Shown here piece by piece: positions 28,447 through 46,425 of a stretch of DNA of 64,000 nucleotides. Every line of letters starts with the position of its first letter. Position 1 is the first letter of the stretch. The DNA lies in the NCBI GenBank assembly GCA_945872825.1, contig CAMCBD010000004.1, positions 3,596 through 67,595 on the forward strand, given 5' to 3'. Source of the stretch: Nitrosomonas ureae (lineage in GTDB: Bacteria > Pseudomonadota > Gammaproteobacteria > Burkholderiales > Nitrosomonadaceae). The position numbers and the translations under genes were made by a program. A model generated the notes under the pieces. The model saw only the letters and a list, made by a program, of their open reading frames with translations. It did not search any database and was not told the DNA's origin.

Positions 28447-28608
28447 GCTAATAGGTCTTCATTAGAAACACACAGAGCGTTAAGATAGCGGTCTTCAGCC
28501 ATCTATTCAAGACAACTTGTCATACTTAAGTACATATTCTGCGATATTGTGAAGAAACCTTGCGCCTGTAAGGAATCTAATGAGCATATTAATCAGGAGA
28601 TCATTTTC

Positions 28609-29925
28609 ATGTCAATGAACCGGCGCCAATTTCTGAGCATGTCCGGCACAACAGCCTTAATGGCTGCATGCTCACCACAAGCATTCACGGCGCAATCGCT
28701 AGTGCAGCGTCCGCAACAAAACGTTTCCGCCACACTGAAAGCGATGCAGCATCTCGCGCAACAAAGAAACCGGTTGCTCGGCTATCCAATTAATATGACC
28801 ACCCCGCCGGAAGCGTTTTTTGCCTGGCGTAATGAACTCGCGACCGCGGGTTTCAACCAATTTTCTTTCAATAATGTCGGCAACCCCTACGACCATAGCC
28901 ATATCCCATTTAACTGCCATCCGTTTGAGAAAGAATTGATCGATCGTTTTGGTGCGGTGTATGGCTTCGGATTGGATAACATTTGGGGATTCCTCACCAA
29001 CAGTGGCACCGACAGCAATATGCATGGACTGTATATGGGTCGCACGATCCTGAAAAGCCATACCGGTGTAATGCCGAAAATCTATTTTACCCACGAAGCG
29101 CATTACTCGATTCAGATTTTGCGCGACTTATTGCGTCTCGATTGGGTGGTAGTCGGCACTCGACCTGATGGCAGCATGGATGCCAATGACTTAGAACGTC
29201 AACTGAATGCCAACCCCAACCACCCTGCCTTGGTGGTCGCAACCATTGGCACCACCTTCAAAGGCGCAATAGACCCTATTGACGCCATCCAGTCTAAGCT
29301 AAAAGGACGCACCGCCTACCTTCACTTGGATGCCGCATTATTCGGTGGCTATTTGCCGCATACCGCGTTTGCCGGCGATTTACTGCATAACATCATTGAT
29401 CCAATTTACAAAGCGAAACTGCAACGCTACGACTCCATCGCCGTTTCTTGCCACAAATTTTTTGGCTTCCCCTCGCCCGCCGGATTGTTCATCACCACGC
29501 GAACGAATTTTGAATCGTTCCGCGCCGAATTCAGCCAAATTCATGACCCGGAATACCTCCAGCAGGTACCGGGCACGATTACCTGCTCGCGCGATGCGGT
29601 CAAACCGGCCGAGTTTTATTTCTTCAGCTCGAAATCCGCCTTCGCGAGACAGGCAGTTGACGCCAAAGCAATGCTGGATAATACCGGTTATTTACTGAAG
29701 GAAATGAACAATCACTATAGCTACCTGCGGCCAGTGCGCGCCAATGATCGCTCCAATACGGTTTATTTCATCACACCGAATAAAACCGTGGTCGATCATT
29801 ACTCGTTAGCAACCATGCAACTCGACATTGACGGAGAACGGACGCCATGCGCACACATCGTGGTCATGCCGCATGCCAAGAAAGAAATTCTTGATCAATT
29901 TCTCACCGATCTGCGCAAAACCTGA
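28609..29925 (+). CDS. group II PLP-dependent decarboxylase (histidine/serine decarboxylase clade) with Tat/lipoprotein signal
   Basis: GFLTNSGTDSN, HYSI, TIGTTFKGAID, HLDAALFG, SCHKFFG (PLP lysine); N-terminus MSMNRRQFL...LMAAC; AGGAG RBS. Confidence 0.85.
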   Translation: MSMNRRQFLSMSGTTALMAACSPQAFTAQSLVQRPQQNVSATLKAMQHLAQQRNRLLGYPINMTTPPEAFFAWRNELATAGFNQFSFNNVGNPYDHSHIPFNCHPFEKELIDRFGAVYGFGLDNIWGFLTNSGTDSNMHGLYMGRTILKSHTGVMPKIYFTHEAHYSIQILRDLLRLDWVVVGTRPDGSMDANDLERQLNANPNHPALVVATIGTTFKGAIDPIDAIQSKLKGRTAYLHLDAALFGGYLPHTAFAGDLLHNIIDPIYKAKLQRYDSIAVSCHKFFGFPSPAGLFITTRTNFESFRAEFSQIHDPEYLQQVPGTITCSRDAVKPAEFYFFSSKSAFARQAVDAKAMLDNTGYLLKEMNNHYSYLRPVRANDRSNTVYFITPNKTVVDHYSLATMQLDIDGERTPCAHIVVMPHAKKEILDQFLTDLRKT

Positions 29926-31545: not shown

Positions 31546-33115
31546 CAGCCTGGAATGAAATCAGAGATCGCGCGCTGGCGTTTTCCAGAGAATGGGCCAG
31601 TGCAGAATCGGAAGATGCGGAAGCCAAGCCATTCTGGATCGAGTTTTTTCATGTGTTTGGCATCAGCCCCCGGCGCATTGGCGGTTTTGAACAAAAAGTC
31701 AAAAAACTGGGTGACAGAGATGGCTATATTGATTGGCTATGGAAAGGCAACCTGCTGATCGAACATAAGTCGCGCGGCAAGGATTTGGATCGCGCCTACC
31801 AGCAAGCCATTGATTATTTCCCCGACCTGAAAGAACATGAACTGCCGCGCTTTGTTCTAGTCAGCGATTTTTCGCGCTTTCGCTTGTATGACGCGATAGA
31901 AGGCACGCAAACCGAATTCCTGCTGAAAGATTTTCATAAATTCGTCAAACTGTTCTGGTTCATCGCCGGTTATCAACCGCAAAAAATTTCCGCGCAAAGC
32001 CCGGTCAATGCCAAAGCGGTGCAGCGCATGGCCAAACTGCACGACCGCTTGAAACAGATTGGCTATGGAAGAAATAAACCTCGTGATCTGGAAGTTTATC
32101 TGGTGCGCCTGCTGTTCTGTCTGTTCGCCGAAGATACCGGCATTTTCGAGCGCACGCAGTTTACCGAATTCATCGAGCAGAAAACACGTGAAGATGGCAG
32201 CGATCTGGCGTCGCAGCTTTCACAATTGTTTGAAATCCTGAATACGCCGGAAACTGCGCGGCTAAAAAACCTGGATGACACCCTGGCGCATTTTCCGTAT
32301 ATCAACGGAAAACTATTTGAAGAACACCTGCCGTTCGCCAGTTTCGACAGCGACATGCGCACCGCGCTGTTGTTTTGCTGCGCACTGGATTGGAGCGGCA
32401 TTTCTCCGGCGATTTTCGGTTCCTTGTTCCAAAATATTATGGACGAAACCCCGAACGCACGGCGCAATCTCGGCGCGCATTACACCACCGAGGAAAACAT
32501 TCTCAAGCTGATCCGCCCGCTGTTTCTCGACGAACTGCACACTGAGTTCGACAAAATCAAAAACAACACCAAGTGCCTGCAAGTCTTTCATAGCAAACTG
32601 GCCAATCTGAAATTTCTCGACCCGGCGTGCGGCTGCGGCAATTTCCTCGTCATCGCCTACCGCGAACTGTGCCAGCTTGAACTCAAAGTACTGCGAACAC
32701 TGCACGACAGCGGCCAGCAAATGCTGGATATCACCAGCATTATTCAGGTCGATGTCGATCAGTTCCACGGCATCGAAATCGAAGAATCTCCGGTACAAAT
32801 CGCACAGGTGGCCTTGTGGCTCACCGACCACCAGATGAACGCGCAAGTCTCGGAAGAATTCGGCCAATACTTCGTCCACCTGCCACGCGCACATCGTACA
32901 TGGCAATGCATTACGGCTGGATTGGAATACTGTTATTCCGGCGGCGCAATGCAGTTTTGTGATGGGGAATCCGCCGTTTATTGGCGCAAAATTTATGAGC
33001 GAAGCACAACGCGCCGACGTAACCACTATTTTTCACGATATTCACGATACCAAAAACGCCGGGTTGCTGGATTATGTGGCTTGTTGGTATCGCAAGGCCA
33101 CGGAATACATGGCAC

Positions 33116-33220
33116 AAATCCCCCTCGATCCCCCTTTTACAAAGGGGAAAGTGGAGAGTGACCACTTGAACGCACACACCTCGATTCCCACCTTTGCAAA
33201 AGGGGGGCCAGGGGGGATTT
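33116..33220. repeat. 105-bp palindromic element inserted in frame in the RM gene
   Basis: AAATCCCCC...GGGGGGATTT ends with internal CCCCTTT/AAAGGGG hairpins; length divisible by 3. Confidence 0.8.
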
Positions 33221-34096
33221 CAGCGGCCTTCGTCTCCACCAACTCCATCACCCAGGGCGAGCAAGTCGGCGTGCTGTGGCCGGACTTGCTCCGGCACGGC
33301 GTGCAACTTCATTTTGCCCACCGCACGTTTCAGTGGATGAACGAAGCCAAAGGCAAAGCCGCGGTGCATTGCGTCATTATTGGTTTTGGTTTGCAGGAAG
33401 CTGCGCACAAAATCATTTTTGAATATGCCGATATTCAAGGCAAACCACACGCAATTCCAGCGAATAACATCAATCCCTATTTGGTGGATGCCCCAAACGT
33501 AGTACTGGAGAACCGCACCTATCCAATTTGCGATGTGCCGAAAATGATCAACGGTAGCAAACCCGCTGACGGTGGCAACTTGCTATTGAGTGACGAAGAA
33601 AAGCATGAATTATTAATAGCCGAGCCTCAAGCTGAAAAGTGGATTCGTCCATTCATCGGAGCCGATGAATTTATCAATAATATTCCACGCTGGTGCTTGT
33701 GGCTGGTTGATATTTCACCTGCGGAGCTACGTACCATGCCACAAATAATGCAACGCGTAGAAGCCGTAAGAACTATGCGCCTTGCCAGCAAGGATGCACA
33801 AACAATAAAAGACGCAGTTACACCTACCCTATTTCAGAAAATTCGCCAACCGACAGAACCCTACTTACTTGTTCCCAGTGTTTCTTCCGAGAATAGACTG
33901 TATGTGCCAATTGGATATTTGCTGCCAGAAGTCATTGTCAGTAATTTAGTATATTCCATTCCCAACGCTACCCTCTATCACTTCGGCATCCTCACTTCCA
34001 CCATGCACAATGCCTGGATGCGTACCGTATGTGGAAGATTAAAAAGCGATTACCGCTATTCCGTTGGCATTGTGTACAACAACTTCCCCTGGCCTG

Positions 34097-34144
34097 AAAT
34101 CCCCCCTTTGACAAAGGGGGGAGGTGCGCAGCACGGGGGGATTT
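34097..34144. repeat. 48-bp palindromic element inserted in frame in the RM gene
   Basis: AAATCCCCCCTTTGACAAAGGGGGG...GGGGGGATTT; length divisible by 3. Confidence 0.8.
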
Positions 34145-34426
34145 CCGCCATCGAAACCGCCGCCCAGGCAGTGCTGGATGCCCGTGCCCAGTTTCCTGAT
34201 TCGACCCTGGCCGATTTGTACGATCCGCTGGCGATGCCGCCGGAATTGGTTCACGTGCATCAGGCTCTGGATCGTGCCGTGGATGCGGCATATGGCAAGA
34301 AGAATTTCGCTTCCGAAGCGGAACGTGTGGCTTTTTTGTTTGAGCGTTATCAAGCCATTACCAGTCTGCTGCCTGCTGTTTCAGCTAAAAAAACGAAAAA
34401 GCCGCAATCATCCTGAGAAGCCACCC

Positions 34427-34534: not shown

Positions 34535-35764
34535 CTATTTGGCAATCGTAATACTCGGCACGCCAATACGCGGAATATCGATGACAGTCATTTGAAACAA
34601 CAAGAATAATAGCTGGAAGGCATCGCGGTTCCAGCGGGCATTAGGGCCCTTGGTATTCACAGCATAATACTGGCCATTATTCCAACGGATTGAGAAATCG
34701 ACTTCCGCCGGTGGTGAGTTTGAAACGACAAATTCCATGGTCAAATCAGGATTCTCGTCCCAGAGTATAGGCGGTGTTCTGGGATCTTTCTCGACGTGAT
34801 ATCCTGTTTCATGGCCGAGCGCTTTACCGAGAAAACCGAGAATCGAATGAAAGCTCCTGAGTCGGAAAACGCCGCTGATAGGCCATTCCCCGCCGTAGTG
34901 GCCAGTCCGGATATCAAAAGCAATATCGCTGACATTCCAATCTCCCGCCTGATCATGCAATGCCTCACGTTCTGCATCGGTTAGCGTGCTGGGATCGTAG
35001 TTGGTGATTAGAATCGGCCCCGGTACTTGTTTACGCAGCGTATAGGTATTGTCTTCCGGGTTGTAGCGTACAACAAATTCTTTTTGCAGCGCTTGGAAGC
35101 CTTCGGCTGCAATTGAGCTGGCCGGGATGGTCCAGGTCTGGATGAGCGGCAATGGTTCCACATGTAATTCATTTTTATCTTGAATCGCAGAAAGATGCAA
35201 TACCACGCGACGAAACATCTCATAACCGGCTTTATCCGACGGGCTATTGCGATAGCTGCTATGTTGCTCGGCAACATTTAGCAAGCGCACTTCCTGCGCC
35301 ATCATCCGTAATAACAGATCGACATCAAACCGCTGACGCAGCAGCAGCGTCAGCTTGCTTTGTGGAAACGGCGTGAGCAAGCGCTTGGTAAAGTCTTCTC
35401 CTTCGATTGGAACGATACTGATGGTGGGGCTTTCTGAAACACCGCCGCCGAAAATCGGCAACATGGTCGCCCCGGCAAGTCCTCCCAATGCGGGTGTAGC
35501 ACCGGCATTCGCATGAAAGGTGAAAGTAGCCGCAATATTTGAAACGCCGGTGAAATGAACCGGTTGGCGGTGATGCGCGCGCACGATATTGATCAGTAAC
35601 TGTTGCGATAGGGCATCGGTGACGGCATCGTCATAAGCGATTACGGCGCGATTCAGCGCCATCGGTGAGACACAACCGGCAAGGACACCCAGGATCAAGA
35701 TGCACGGTAACAATCGCAGCAAATGCCGCAAAAAGATCGAGTTAATAATATTCTGGCCGGGCAT
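34535..35764 (-). CDS. hypothetical lipoprotein
   Basis: VLAGC lipobox; LLINIVRA..QPVHF; start uncertain and overlaps the end of dnaB. Confidence 0.7.
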   Translation of the reverse strand: MPGQNIINSIFLRHLLRLLPCILILGVLAGCVSPMALNRAVIAYDDAVTDALSQQLLINIVRAHHRQPVHFTGVSNIAATFTFHANAGATPALGGLAGATMLPIFGGGVSESPTISIVPIEGEDFTKRLLTPFPQSKLTLLLRQRFDVDLLLRMMAQEVRLLNVAEQHSSYRNSPSDKAGYEMFRRVVLHLSAIQDKNELHVEPLPLIQTWTIPASSIAAEGFQALQKEFVVRYNPEDNTYTLRKQVPGPILITNYDPSTLTDAEREALHDQAGDWNVSDIAFDIRTGHYGGEWPISGVFRLRSFHSILGFLGKALGHETGYHVEKDPRTPPILWDENPDLTMEFVVSNSPPAEVDFSIRWNNGQYYAVNTKGPNARWNRDAFQLLFLLFQMTVIDIPRIGVPSITIAK

Positions 35765-37127
35765 GGCTTTCAAAACGGGTGTATTCACCCAGGAAAGTTA
35801 AATCGACTTTTCCGATCGGGCCATTGCGCTGTTTACCAATGATGATTTCTGCGATACCTTTGTCTGGCGAATCCGGGTTGTACACTTCGTCCCGGTAAAT
35901 AAAGAGAATGACATCAGCATCTTGTTCGATCGCACCGGATTCACGCAAGTCTGACATGACCGGGCGCTTGTTGGGACGTTGCTCAAGGCTTCGATTAAGC
36001 TGAGATAACGCGATGACCGGCACTTTCAATTCTTTGGCCAATCCTTTTAAAGCACGCGATATTTCTGAAATTTCCGTGGCGCGATTCTCCCCTTGGCTGC
36101 TGGAAGACATGAGCTGTAAATAATCCACTACAATTAAACCCAGTTCACCATGCTGGCGATAGAGCCGCCTGGCGCGTGCCCTGAGTTCCAAAGCATTCAG
36201 TGCCGCAGACTCATCAATGAAAATCGGCGCTTCGTTGAGTTTGCCTAACGCATGCGTCAACTTAGGCCAATCCGCATCTTCCAGACGGCCGGTACGTACT
36301 TTATGCTGATCCAGTTTTCCGACCGATCCCAGCATACGCATGGCAAGTTGGGCCCCTCCCATTTCCATACTGAACACGGCGACCGGTTTGTTCAATTCCA
36401 GTGCGACATGCTCGGCGATATTCAGTGAAAATGCAGTTTTACCCATGGATGGCCGACCCGCCACTATGATTAGATCTCCAGGTTGAAATCCGGATGTTTT
36501 TTGATCGAGATCGTGAAAGCCAGATGCAATGCCGGTAACATTGCTTGGATTATCCTGGCTGTAGAGTAACTCTATCCTTTCAACTACTTGTTTTAGGAGC
36601 GGTTGAATATCCATGAAGCCTTCTTTGCCTCGAGCACCTTCTTCGGCAATTTCAAAGACTCTCTTTTCCGCTTCATCGAGCAAATCTGCTGCAGAACGTC
36701 CGGCCGGACTATATGCAGAATCCGTTATCTGGACACCGATCTGTGCCAGATTACGCATAATTGAGCGTTCACGAACAATCTCAGCATAACGTTTTATATT
36801 TGCCGCAGAAGGGGTGTTTTGTACAATGGCGCCAATATAAGCGAGTCCACCGATTTTCTGAAGCTCAGCCGATATTTCCAGGGATTCGGCCACCGTAATC
36901 ACGTCAGCGGGTTTGTTATGTTCTATCAGTTTGCAAATATGATGATAGATCAGACGATGATCCTGCCGGTAAAAATCACTATCCGTAATGACATCAGCGA
37001 CTTTCTCCCAGGCATGATTATCCAGCATCAGCCCACCCAGGACAGACTGCTCACTTTCAATAGAGTGAGGAGGCGTTTTATAGGAATCTACGGGCTGATC
37101 TTGATTGATGCTGAGAGTTGACGCCAT
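35742..37127 (-). CDS. dnaB: replicative DNA helicase
   Basis: PPHSIESEQSVLG, AGRPSMGKT, DYLQLM, SDLRESGAIEQDAD. Confidence 0.97.
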   Translation of the reverse strand: MASTLSINQDQPVDSYKTPPHSIESEQSVLGGLMLDNHAWEKVADVITDSDFYRQDHRLIYHHICKLIEHNKPADVITVAESLEISAELQKIGGLAYIGAIVQNTPSAANIKRYAEIVRERSIMRNLAQIGVQITDSAYSPAGRSAADLLDEAEKRVFEIAEEGARGKEGFMDIQPLLKQVVERIELLYSQDNPSNVTGIASGFHDLDQKTSGFQPGDLIIVAGRPSMGKTAFSLNIAEHVALELNKPVAVFSMEMGGAQLAMRMLGSVGKLDQHKVRTGRLEDADWPKLTHALGKLNEAPIFIDESAALNALELRARARRLYRQHGELGLIVVDYLQLMSSSSQGENRATEISEISRALKGLAKELKVPVIALSQLNRSLEQRPNKRPVMSDLRESGAIEQDADVILFIYRDEVYNPDSPDKGIAEIIIGKQRNGPIGKVDLTFLGEYTRFESHARPEYY

Positions 37128-45816: not shown

Positions 45817-46425
45817 TTACACAGATCCCTCGCTTGTAGCTCCAATTAAAAGACGGCTATCACTCAAATAAACATGAGGAGGAACAACCATATTAGTAGG
45901 AGCCGGTACACTTTTATACACGCGACCAGCTAAATCAAATTTTGATCCATGACAAGGACAGAAAAATCCGCCCAACCAGTCTGGACCCAAATCCGCAGGA
46001 GCAATCTCCTTCCTAAATACAGGAGAACACCCCAAGTGTGTGCACACACCTTCAGTAACGAGAATTTCCGGTTTGATTGATCGCGTACGATTTTGAGCAT
46101 ATTCCGGTTGCTGCGGTTTTTCTGAATTCGGGTCGGCTAGCTCCTCTTCTACTTTCACAAGCGTATCAAGCATTTCCGGAGTACGGTTTAAAACCCATAC
46201 GACTTTTCCGCGCCATTCGACCATCAGAAGCATGCCAGGCTCAAGCTTTGATATATCAACCTCTACCGGCGCCCCTGCCGCTTTAGCTCGTTCACTAGGC
46301 ATCATACTCAACATAAAGGGGGTTGCAATTGCAACCCCCGCAATACCGCCAGCTACAGATGTTACCGCGACCAAGAATTTTCTTCTGCCGCTCATTTCAT
46401 CAGGGATGCTAAAACTATCAGCCAT
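45817..46425 (-). CDS. petA: Rieske iron-sulfur subunit
   Basis: Tat signal GRRKFL, CTHLGC, CPCHGS. Confidence 0.97.
   Translation of the reverse strand: MADSFSIPDEMSGRRKFLVAVTSVAGGIAGVAIATPFMLSMMPSERAKAAGAPVEVDISKLEPGMLLMVEWRGKVVWVLNRTPEMLDTLVKVEEELADPNSEKPQQPEYAQNRTRSIKPEILVTEGVCTHLGCSPVFRKEIAPADLGPDWLGGFFCPCHGSKFDLAGRVYKSVPAPTNMVVPPHVYLSDSRLLIGATSEGSV

Follow-up and report, generated by a model that had tools for sequence, protein, structure and literature searches.

Amino acid decarboxylation by enzymes that depend on pyridoxal 5′-phosphate (PLP) is treated as a cytoplasmic process, which serves acid resistance or the synthesis of polyamines, neurotransmitters, and cofactors. In agreement with this general knowledge, full-text literature searches found no exception to the cytoplasmic location of characterised group II decarboxylases and no report of an exported one. 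The plant serine and alanine decarboxylases (AtSerDC, structure 8JG7; CsAlaDC, structures 8JIJ and 8JIK) are the best match by sequence and fold to the protein studied here, with a Foldseek E-value of 2e-23, template-modelling (TM) scores of 0.66–0.71, and 27–29% identity. The Gram-negative histidine decarboxylase (HDC) HdcA (structures 7ERU and 7ERV; model NF002748) belongs to the same subfamily and shares the fold and the length of the catalytic domain. Outside this group, PvdN and PtaA, two pyoverdine-tailoring enzymes of Pseudomonas, bind PLP in the cytoplasm and are exported in folded form by the twin-arginine translocation (Tat) pathway, and PvdN also takes off a carboxyl group (PMC6206403). 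The subject of this study is a gene at positions 28609..29925 (forward strand, as are all features of this gene; stop codon 29923–29925) in a 64,000-nucleotide stretch of contig CAMCBD010000004.1, hereafter the window, from a lake Nitrosomonas recovered from a lake-water metagenome. The original prediction for this gene was a group II decarboxylase tethered in the periplasm by a Tat lipoprotein signal, and its two premises, that characterised group II decarboxylases are cytoplasmic and that Tat carries cofactor-loaded enzymes, agree with the literature above. Our analysis suggests that the 438-residue product is probably the precursor of a PLP-dependent L-amino-acid decarboxylase that is exported by Tat and acts outside the cytoplasm on a substrate other than histidine or serine.

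The N-terminus of the product reads MSMNRRQFLSMSGTTALMAAC and contains the twin-arginine motif N-R-R-Q-F-L at residues 4–9 (28618..28635, with the arginine pair at 28621–28626), which is conserved in homologs. The arginines are followed by 27 uncharged residues with a weakly hydrophobic h-region (maximum 10-residue Kyte–Doolittle value of 1.1), and the protein thus matches the Tat-substrate pattern of an S/T-R-R-x-F-L-K-like motif followed by an uncharged, moderately hydrophobic stretch. If cleavage occurs before Cys21, the signal peptide comprises residues 1–20 (28609..28668), a segment marked by its uncharged stretch, coding periodicity, and low predicted local distance difference test (pLDDT) values. 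It ends at the lipobox-like site L-M-A-A-C21-S-P23 (28657..28677), which includes a conserved Cys-x-Pro. Residues 22–45 (28672..28743) form a variable linker that leads from Cys21 to the enzyme's first helix, which begins at residue 41; the alignment has no conserved columns from P23 to L57, and pLDDT stays low as far as residue 38, which suggests that the linker is probably disordered.

Conservation of this signal extends far beyond the window. Among the 120 best homolog representatives (59–97% identity), 113 have RRxFL and a cysteine 12–18 residues past the arginines, mostly 16 or 18, and the seven exceptions resemble truncated or mis-called starts. A second search, with the most divergent member as query, recovered a Halieaceae-type subclade in which 82 of 85 members have both the arginine pair and the cysteine. 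The arginine pair is also present in about 74 of the 80 best species-representative genome loci, which were taken from at least 536 in a ranking biased by similarity to the query. A cysteine lies 12–25 residues after the arginines in all 195 family members counted as RR-bearing, and proline occupies the second position after it in 183 of them. The combination of RRxF[LIVM], an uncharged stretch, and a cysteine occurs in this gene only among 916 candidate open reading frame (ORF) starts of at least 100 residues in the window. The only other Tat-like N-terminus there, MSGRRKFLVAV, belongs to a Rieske Fe-S subunit (45817–46395, reverse strand) and served as an internal positive control. Rieske Fe-S subunits are classic Tat substrates with an N-terminal anchor.

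The next relatives (the P0127 group, 41% identical) form a sister clade, hereafter the Sec clade, with classical Sec signals and a strongly hydrophobic h-region in 109 of 119 members, A-x-A sites visible in the listed N-termini, and the arginine pair in one of 119. Median h-region hydrophobicity is 1.69 in the Tat clade against 2.73 in the Sec clade and 0.66 in cytoplasmic relatives, and the lower value of the Tat clade relative to the Sec clade is as expected for Tat signals. Taken together, the conserved export signal makes it very probable that the enzyme is extracytoplasmic. One relative, P0285, was considered as a natively cytoplasmic member of the clade and rejected on account of a frameshift, since a remnant of the arginine motif, MTTRRLLLSAG, lies out of frame just upstream. 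In the family member at locus L093 (5900–7272), the Tat signal MTTRRLLLSAG is out of frame with the catalytic domain, which differs at both putative specificity positions (YP-D and TIT-T-SR); this copy may be decaying, may be re-purposed, or may reflect a long-read indel.

The signal is also part of the translated gene. A Shine–Dalgarno sequence, AGGAG, lies 9 nt 5′ of the ATG (28595..28599), and a CAGGAGG-like motif 7–9 nt before the ATG is kept in 22–23 of 24 Nitrosomonas orthologs. Across these 24 orthologs, differences in signal codons 2–25 number 1394, 526, and 2678 at codon positions 1, 2, and 3, respectively, whereas the 75 nt 5′ of the ATG show 3855, 3945, and 3828. The third-position-biased substitutions and the kept Shine–Dalgarno motif indicate that the signal of the ORF starting at 28609 is translated. 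A longer GTG-initiated form (start at 28549) had no support among homologs, and no promoter or terminator signal of this gene exceeded what shuffled sequence would give.

Downstream of the signal, the protein encodes a complete group II PLP decarboxylase that is apparently active, as judged from its conserved residues. It scores 45.3 bits against Pfam PF00282 (cutoff 27), and among proteins of solved structure its sequence comes closest to plant serine decarboxylase (8jg7, E 1e-40), followed by Photobacterium HDC (7erv/7eru, E 1e-34). In the AlphaFold2 monomer model (pLDDT 75.6), residues 1–38 (pLDDT <50) and the catalytic loop 316–329 are of low confidence. Foldseek matched this model best to SerDC/AlaDC, HDC, and L-methionine decarboxylase (TM 0.64–0.75), and all of the top 50 matches were group II decarboxylases or sphingosine-1-phosphate lyases, in keeping with a predicted three-domain architecture of fold type I. 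The PLP-binding lysine motif S280-C281-H282-K283 (29446..29457) has its lysine in 119 of 119 clade members, and His165, Thr216, Asp241, Ala243, Ser280, His282, Lys283, Tyr316, Ser327, and Arg328 are invariant in the same set. Every residue to which PLP binding or catalysis has been assigned in AtSerDC and CsAlaDC (PMC11407765) is conserved here, including the stacking histidine (His165), the threonine to O3 (Thr216), the aspartate to N1 (Asp241), the Schiff-base lysine (Lys283), and the alanine (Ala243). In the catalytic loop H312...Y316...T323-I-T-C326-S327-R328 (29542..29592), the invariant Tyr316 aligns with AtSerDC Tyr341, the proton donor to the carbanion, and Ser327 corresponds to AtSerDC Ser352, which contacts the PLP phosphate of the partner subunit.

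Several positions in and around this active site set the clade apart. Residues invariant and specific to it are Ser132, Asp135, Ser136, Phe217, Phe245, Gly247, Cys281, Phe287, His312, Pro321-Gly322, Cys326, and Lys332. The phosphate-binding loop S132-G-T-D135-S136-N (29002..29019) includes three of them; in AtSerDC, Gly174 and Thr175 contact the PLP phosphate (PMC11407765). The position of Asp135 is a glutamate (CsAlaDC Glu171) in all eight group II decarboxylases compared previously (PMC11407765), whereas every member of the Tat and Sec clades has aspartate. The "YP-X" specificity motif, Y59-P60-I61 (28783..28791), in which X corresponds to AtSerDC Tyr111, contains isoleucine in 90, valine in 22, leucine in six, and glycine in one of 119 clade members, so that 118 of 119 have one of the three aliphatic residues. 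TITCSR (29575–29592), which the original prediction had singled out as replacing the usual TIxGSR, is a true clade signature: Cys326, beside the phosphate-binding Ser327, is present in 119 of 119 Tat-clade and 113 of 118 Sec-clade members, against glycine in 67 and cysteine in 16 of 89 other relatives. Cys281 is likewise present in 119 of 119 Tat-clade members, versus glycine in 118 of 118 Sec-clade members and in 69 of 89 other relatives.

The mature Tat-clade protein often contains exactly two cysteines, Cys281 and Cys326. An intersubunit disulfide between them was considered as a periplasmic adaptation and rejected; the Sec clade has Gly281 and most of its mature proteins contain one cysteine only, so such a bond would not be a general requirement. 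Cys326 is probably a free active-site thiol. The first prediction had correctly read a complete decarboxylase of the histidine/serine branch with an SCHK lysine motif, fused to an RRxFL signal, which proved to be translated and shared by homologs.

Databases name this protein and its homologs histidine decarboxylase. The best NCBIfam model is indeed the HDC equivalog NF002748, but the score of 223.9 bits lies below the cutoff of 305, and the clade as a whole scores 184–250 bits against 605 for true HDC and 461 for serine decarboxylase (SDC). In a neighbour-joining tree, the Tat clade is monophyletic and has uncharacterised sisters, with HDC and SDC in the distant remainder; its distance to HDC (0.77) exceeds that between HDC and SDC (0.66). 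The YP-I/V/L of the clade stands against YP-Y in SerDC and YP-E in true HDC, and in AtSerDC the mutant Y111I retained less than 5% of activity and Y111L and Y111V retained none (PMC11407765). The C-terminal extension of SerDC is also absent, as the SerDC chain has 418 residues and the alignment stops at residue 386. The SerDC C-terminus carries a zinc finger (PMC11407765), and its three cysteines and one histidine have no counterpart here, where the sole C-terminal cysteine (Cys414) is not conserved. On this sequence evidence, the name histidine decarboxylase is without support. The protein is not an ordinary HDC or SDC, in line with the original prediction, and falls in an uncharacterised subfamily that adjoins the histidine and serine/alanine decarboxylases without being part of either; full-text literature searches found no characterised member of this family.

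In common with plant SerDC/AlaDC, the window protein has the PLP-binding residues, the catalytic-loop tyrosine, the YP-X motif, and a GSR-type contact to the phosphate of the partner subunit, but it is bacterial, has aliphatic residues rather than Tyr/Phe at YP-X, aspartate for glutamate, and Cys281 and Cys326 for glycine, lacks the C-terminal extension, and carries an N-terminal export signal. It differs from HdcA in its score (224 versus 605 bits), in its place outside the HDC and SDC group, in having YP-I for YP-E, and in its predicted export.

The Sec clade suggests that export is a property of this enzyme branch rather than of the Tat clade alone. Like the Tat clade, it consists of stand-alone genes, and the two clades share YP-V/I, Ser132, Asp135, Phe217, Phe245, Gly247, and Thr-Cys326-Ser-Arg, which are mostly missing from cytoplasmic relatives; it differs in its signals and in Gly281. 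The Sec signals and this shared active-site signature suggest that the branch is exported by two routes, and with a Sec signal PLP would need to be acquired after export in the Sec clade. Its members are mostly Desulfonatronum, Omnitrophota, and delta-proteobacterial metagenome-assembled genomes (e.g., L094 8001–9263 and loci L095–L174). At L117 (7214–9160) and two similar metagenome loci, the Sec-clade decarboxylase is followed directly by a 648-residue group II enzyme of the tyrosine-decarboxylase type (PF21391 and PF00282), with a gap of 83 bp at L117; this enzyme also has a Sec-like signal and may represent another kind of exported decarboxylase. In Desulfonatronum thiodismutans, a large Orn/Lys/Arg decarboxylase (OKR_DC_1; L094 9377–11818) is located 114 bp past the Sec-clade gene.

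These data can be accommodated in a four-step scheme. The enzyme would first fold, bind PLP at Lys283, and dimerise in the cytoplasm, by analogy with PvdN and PtaA and with the obligate-dimer active site of group II decarboxylases. The Tat translocase would then export the folded holo-enzyme by means of N-R-R-Q-F-L, a step for which the sequence argues strongly. Third, and least securely, lipidation and cleavage at Cys21 might tether the enzyme to the periplasmic side of a membrane by a flexible linker of about 25 residues; serine at position +2 would direct it to the outer membrane by the Escherichia coli rule. Finally, the enzyme would decarboxylate an amino acid other than histidine or serine in the periplasm, releasing an amine and CO2 and consuming one proton per turnover. 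A pocket lined by Ile61 of YP-X, Phe217, Phe245, Phe287, and Thr325-Cys326 might favour a small or aliphatic/hydrophobic side chain. The solitary position of the gene in all lineages makes a free amino acid that is generally available a likelier substrate than a dedicated-pathway intermediate.

Several observations weigh against this scheme or parts of it. The suggestion about the substrate draws by analogy on mutations made in a plant enzyme of 29% identity, the AlphaFold2 model is monomeric and only moderately confident, and the transcript data are thin: related genes occur in sediment and wastewater metatranscriptome contigs that are short, of low depth, and without strand information, and DNA carry-over is possible. 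The remaining points concern the lipid anchor. Across 195 members, the residue before the cysteine is glycine in 57, threonine in 43, leucine in 30, valine in 29, alanine in 12, and serine in nine, so that a lipobox-compatible G/A/S occurs in only 78. Many members have an A-x-A site past the cysteine in place of a lipobox, and signal peptidase I cleavage is also possible in the window protein, in which A-F-T-A (residues 25–28) follows Cys21. Moreover, the Cys-x-Pro (28669–28677 in the window) is kept even where leucine, histidine, arginine, or glutamine before the cysteine rules out a lipobox, and in the Tat clade it may be a non-canonical anchor or an element of a pro-peptide. A formylglycine motif (C-x-P-x-R) is ruled out, as the arginine is absent.

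Export by Tat without lipidation is accordingly the alternative that survives best, although we regard it as rather unlikely for the window protein. Signal peptidase I would then cut past the cysteine, or the signal would remain as an uncleaved anchor, and the enzyme would be either a soluble periplasmic protein or one fixed in the inner membrane; Cys-x-Pro would in that case serve another purpose. An A-x-A within 12 residues past the cysteine is found in 18 of the 45 members whose −1 residue is bulky and in 20 of the 72 that have threonine or valine there, two Planctomycete members have the arginine pair without any cysteine, and the Rieske protein of the window is itself a Tat substrate with an N-terminal anchor. 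Conversely, L-M-A-A-C fits a lipobox in the style of PROSITE PS51257, though not the strict form owing to methionine at −3 (family-wide, 74 and 11 of 195 members fit the two, respectively); Methylococcales members have a canonical x-A-G-C, rarely followed by A-x-A (5 of 78); and invariance in 195 of 195 RR-bearing members is not what one would expect of a cysteine that is lost along with the signal peptide. Of the lipoprotein named in the original prediction, the fit of this protein to a lipobox stands, whereas its extension to the family does not: lipidation is plausible here and remains our somewhat favoured guess for the window protein, but with so few lipobox-compatible members it is no family trait. 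Tat-dependent lipoproteins have been described in haloarchaea and Streptomyces and form the "Tat/SPII" class of SignalP 6.0; to our knowledge, few natural ones exist in proteobacteria. The window protein resembles them in its twin arginines, short h-region, and the cysteine of a lipobox-like site some 16–18 residues on, and differs in that the lipobox is canonical in only part of its family.

A function closer to that of PvdN appears improbable. The enzyme would in this case tailor, in the periplasm, the free α-amino-acid moiety of a larger molecule, such as a siderophore or chalkophore precursor, an envelope lipid head group, or a peptide. PvdN and PtaA, the only well-studied Tat-exported PLP enzymes, act in this manner, and envelope-related neighbours occur in single lineages (a Tat multicopper oxidase, an SGNH/GDSL lipoprotein, and a TonB receptor). 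However, no partner is shared across lineages, and most copies, including that of the window, stand alone, while pvdN-type genes lie in biosynthetic clusters. What the window protein would share with them is Tat export of a PLP enzyme and, with PvdN, decarboxylation; PvdN and PtaA belong instead to a class V aminotransferase-like family of fold type I, act on pyoverdine-bound glutamate, and are not described as lipoproteins (PMC6206403).

More doubtful still is the suggestion, made in the original prediction, that a periplasmic device that consumes protons or forms amines protects an acid-generating ammonia oxidiser. Decarboxylation does consume a proton, and the gene is vertically inherited across many Nitrosomonas lineages. 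Yet the family is equally present in methanotrophs, marine Halieaceae, Planctomycetes, Verrucomicrobia, and Myxococcota, and the Sec clade is found in taxa that do not nitrify. No antiporter, acid-response regulator, or other acid-resistance partner is conserved nearby in the 80 Tat-clade and 81 Sec-clade loci compared, and an amino acid flux sufficient to buffer proton release on the scale of nitrification seems implausible; this link could not be sustained. Finally, an ordinary cytoplasmic HDC initiated downstream, for example at Met46, with an untranslated "signal", would suit the database name and give an HDC-like length, but it is very improbable given the third-position bias in codons 2–25, the Shine–Dalgarno sequence before the ATG at 28609, an RRxFL...C-x-P kept across phyla, and a position below the HDC cutoff and outside the HDC clade. 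Neither a start downstream of the signal nor homologs lacking the arginines, which would have spoken against the exported decarboxylase, was therefore borne out (codon periodicity in 24 orthologs; signals in 113 of 120 and 82 of 85 homologs).

Clade-specific peptide patterns of the exported decarboxylase were matched in at least 536 species-representative genomes. The best 80 loci include about 47 from Nitrosomonas, about 25 from Methylococcales, six from Planctomycetes, two from Enhygromyxa, one from Puniceicoccaceae, and one from Cyclobacteriaceae, and the second search added Halieaceae and others; Verrucomicrobia, Myxococcota, and Bacteroidota are also represented. A specific tie to organisms with copper monooxygenases was considered and is not claimed, as the top matches, in which Nitrosomonas and Methylococcales are enriched, were ranked by their similarity to the query, and the second search brought up Halieaceae and other groups. 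The Nitrosomonas copies are monophyletic, consistent with vertical descent, whereas the Planctomycete and Cyclobacteriaceae copies nest among those of methanotrophs, which points to transfer. Nitrosomonas communis Nm44 has two copies, one on each of two contigs (L028 and L032), and each copy shares 73% identity with the query.

Clustering of all ORFs within 4–5 kb revealed no neighbour family shared across lineages in 80 Tat-clade genome loci and 81 Sec-clade metagenome or genome loci. Pairings are lineage-specific only and involve a multicopper oxidase, an SGNH lipoprotein, a kynureninase-like gene, or an OKR-type decarboxylase; a TonB receptor is another lineage-specific envelope neighbour. 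In the window and its close relatives, greB is divergent, and a gene for an SMR transporter and one for a 2-hydroxyacid dehydrogenase lie on the opposite strand, a synteny found in Nitrosomonas only. Marine Nitrosomonas (L049 2873–7305; also L043–L046, L054, L057, L058, and L073) have an MBL-fold hydrolase, a Tat-signal multicopper oxidase, and, in third place, the decarboxylase tightly spaced on the same strand; a Blh-like gene, TauE, and a regulator of the ArsR/BigR type in divergent orientation adjoin this set. A fragment of a Met-rich multicopper oxidase (L074 7411–8034) is convergent to the copy of Methylomicrobium. At Halieaceae-type loci (L089 8352–8999; L090 8346–9008), an SGNH/GDSL hydrolase with a canonical lipoprotein signal (LLLSAC or LLLQAC) either begins 2 nt beyond the end of the decarboxylase gene or shares 8 nt with it, and in Puniceicoccaceae an unrelated GDSL gene (L004 10598–11212) is located two genes downstream.

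Two further features of the window were recorded. An MmeI-type restriction-modification gene (31653–34416, forward strand) is split by a frameshift in the methyltransferase domain into overlapping ORFs (31653–33161 and 32959–34416); the frame appears uninterrupted in the related genome L008, where the gene runs off the end of the locus, and the split version could be a pseudogene or an assembly error. On the reverse strand, a 417-residue ORF (34535–35788) that matched no Pfam family carries a canonical lipoprotein signal, LGVLAGC.

What is new in the predicted exported decarboxylase is an exported form of a known enzyme type that belongs to a large unstudied branch. For research on Tat, it would be a natural proteobacterial substrate that is cofactor-loaded, dimeric, and possibly lipid-anchored; in the Sec clade, the question arises how an enzyme exported in unfolded form would obtain its PLP. 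More tentatively, the Tat clade, with its at least 536 species representatives, and its Sec neighbour might represent a widespread, unrecognised class of extracytoplasmic amino-acid decarboxylases. The distinct active site that both exported clades share (YP-V/I, aspartate for glutamate, and Thr-Cys-Ser-Arg) suggests that the reaction they would catalyse, in the periplasm or on the cell surface, is a decarboxylation not described so far; among other purposes, it might serve to scavenge nitrogen or supply ammonia, to signal by means of amines, or to take part in the chemistry of the envelope. If the family is built for export, many environmental bacteria, including nitrifiers and methanotrophs, would form amines and CO2 from amino acids outside the cytoplasmic membrane, which would bear on the use of dissolved organic nitrogen by such organisms and on which amines they release.

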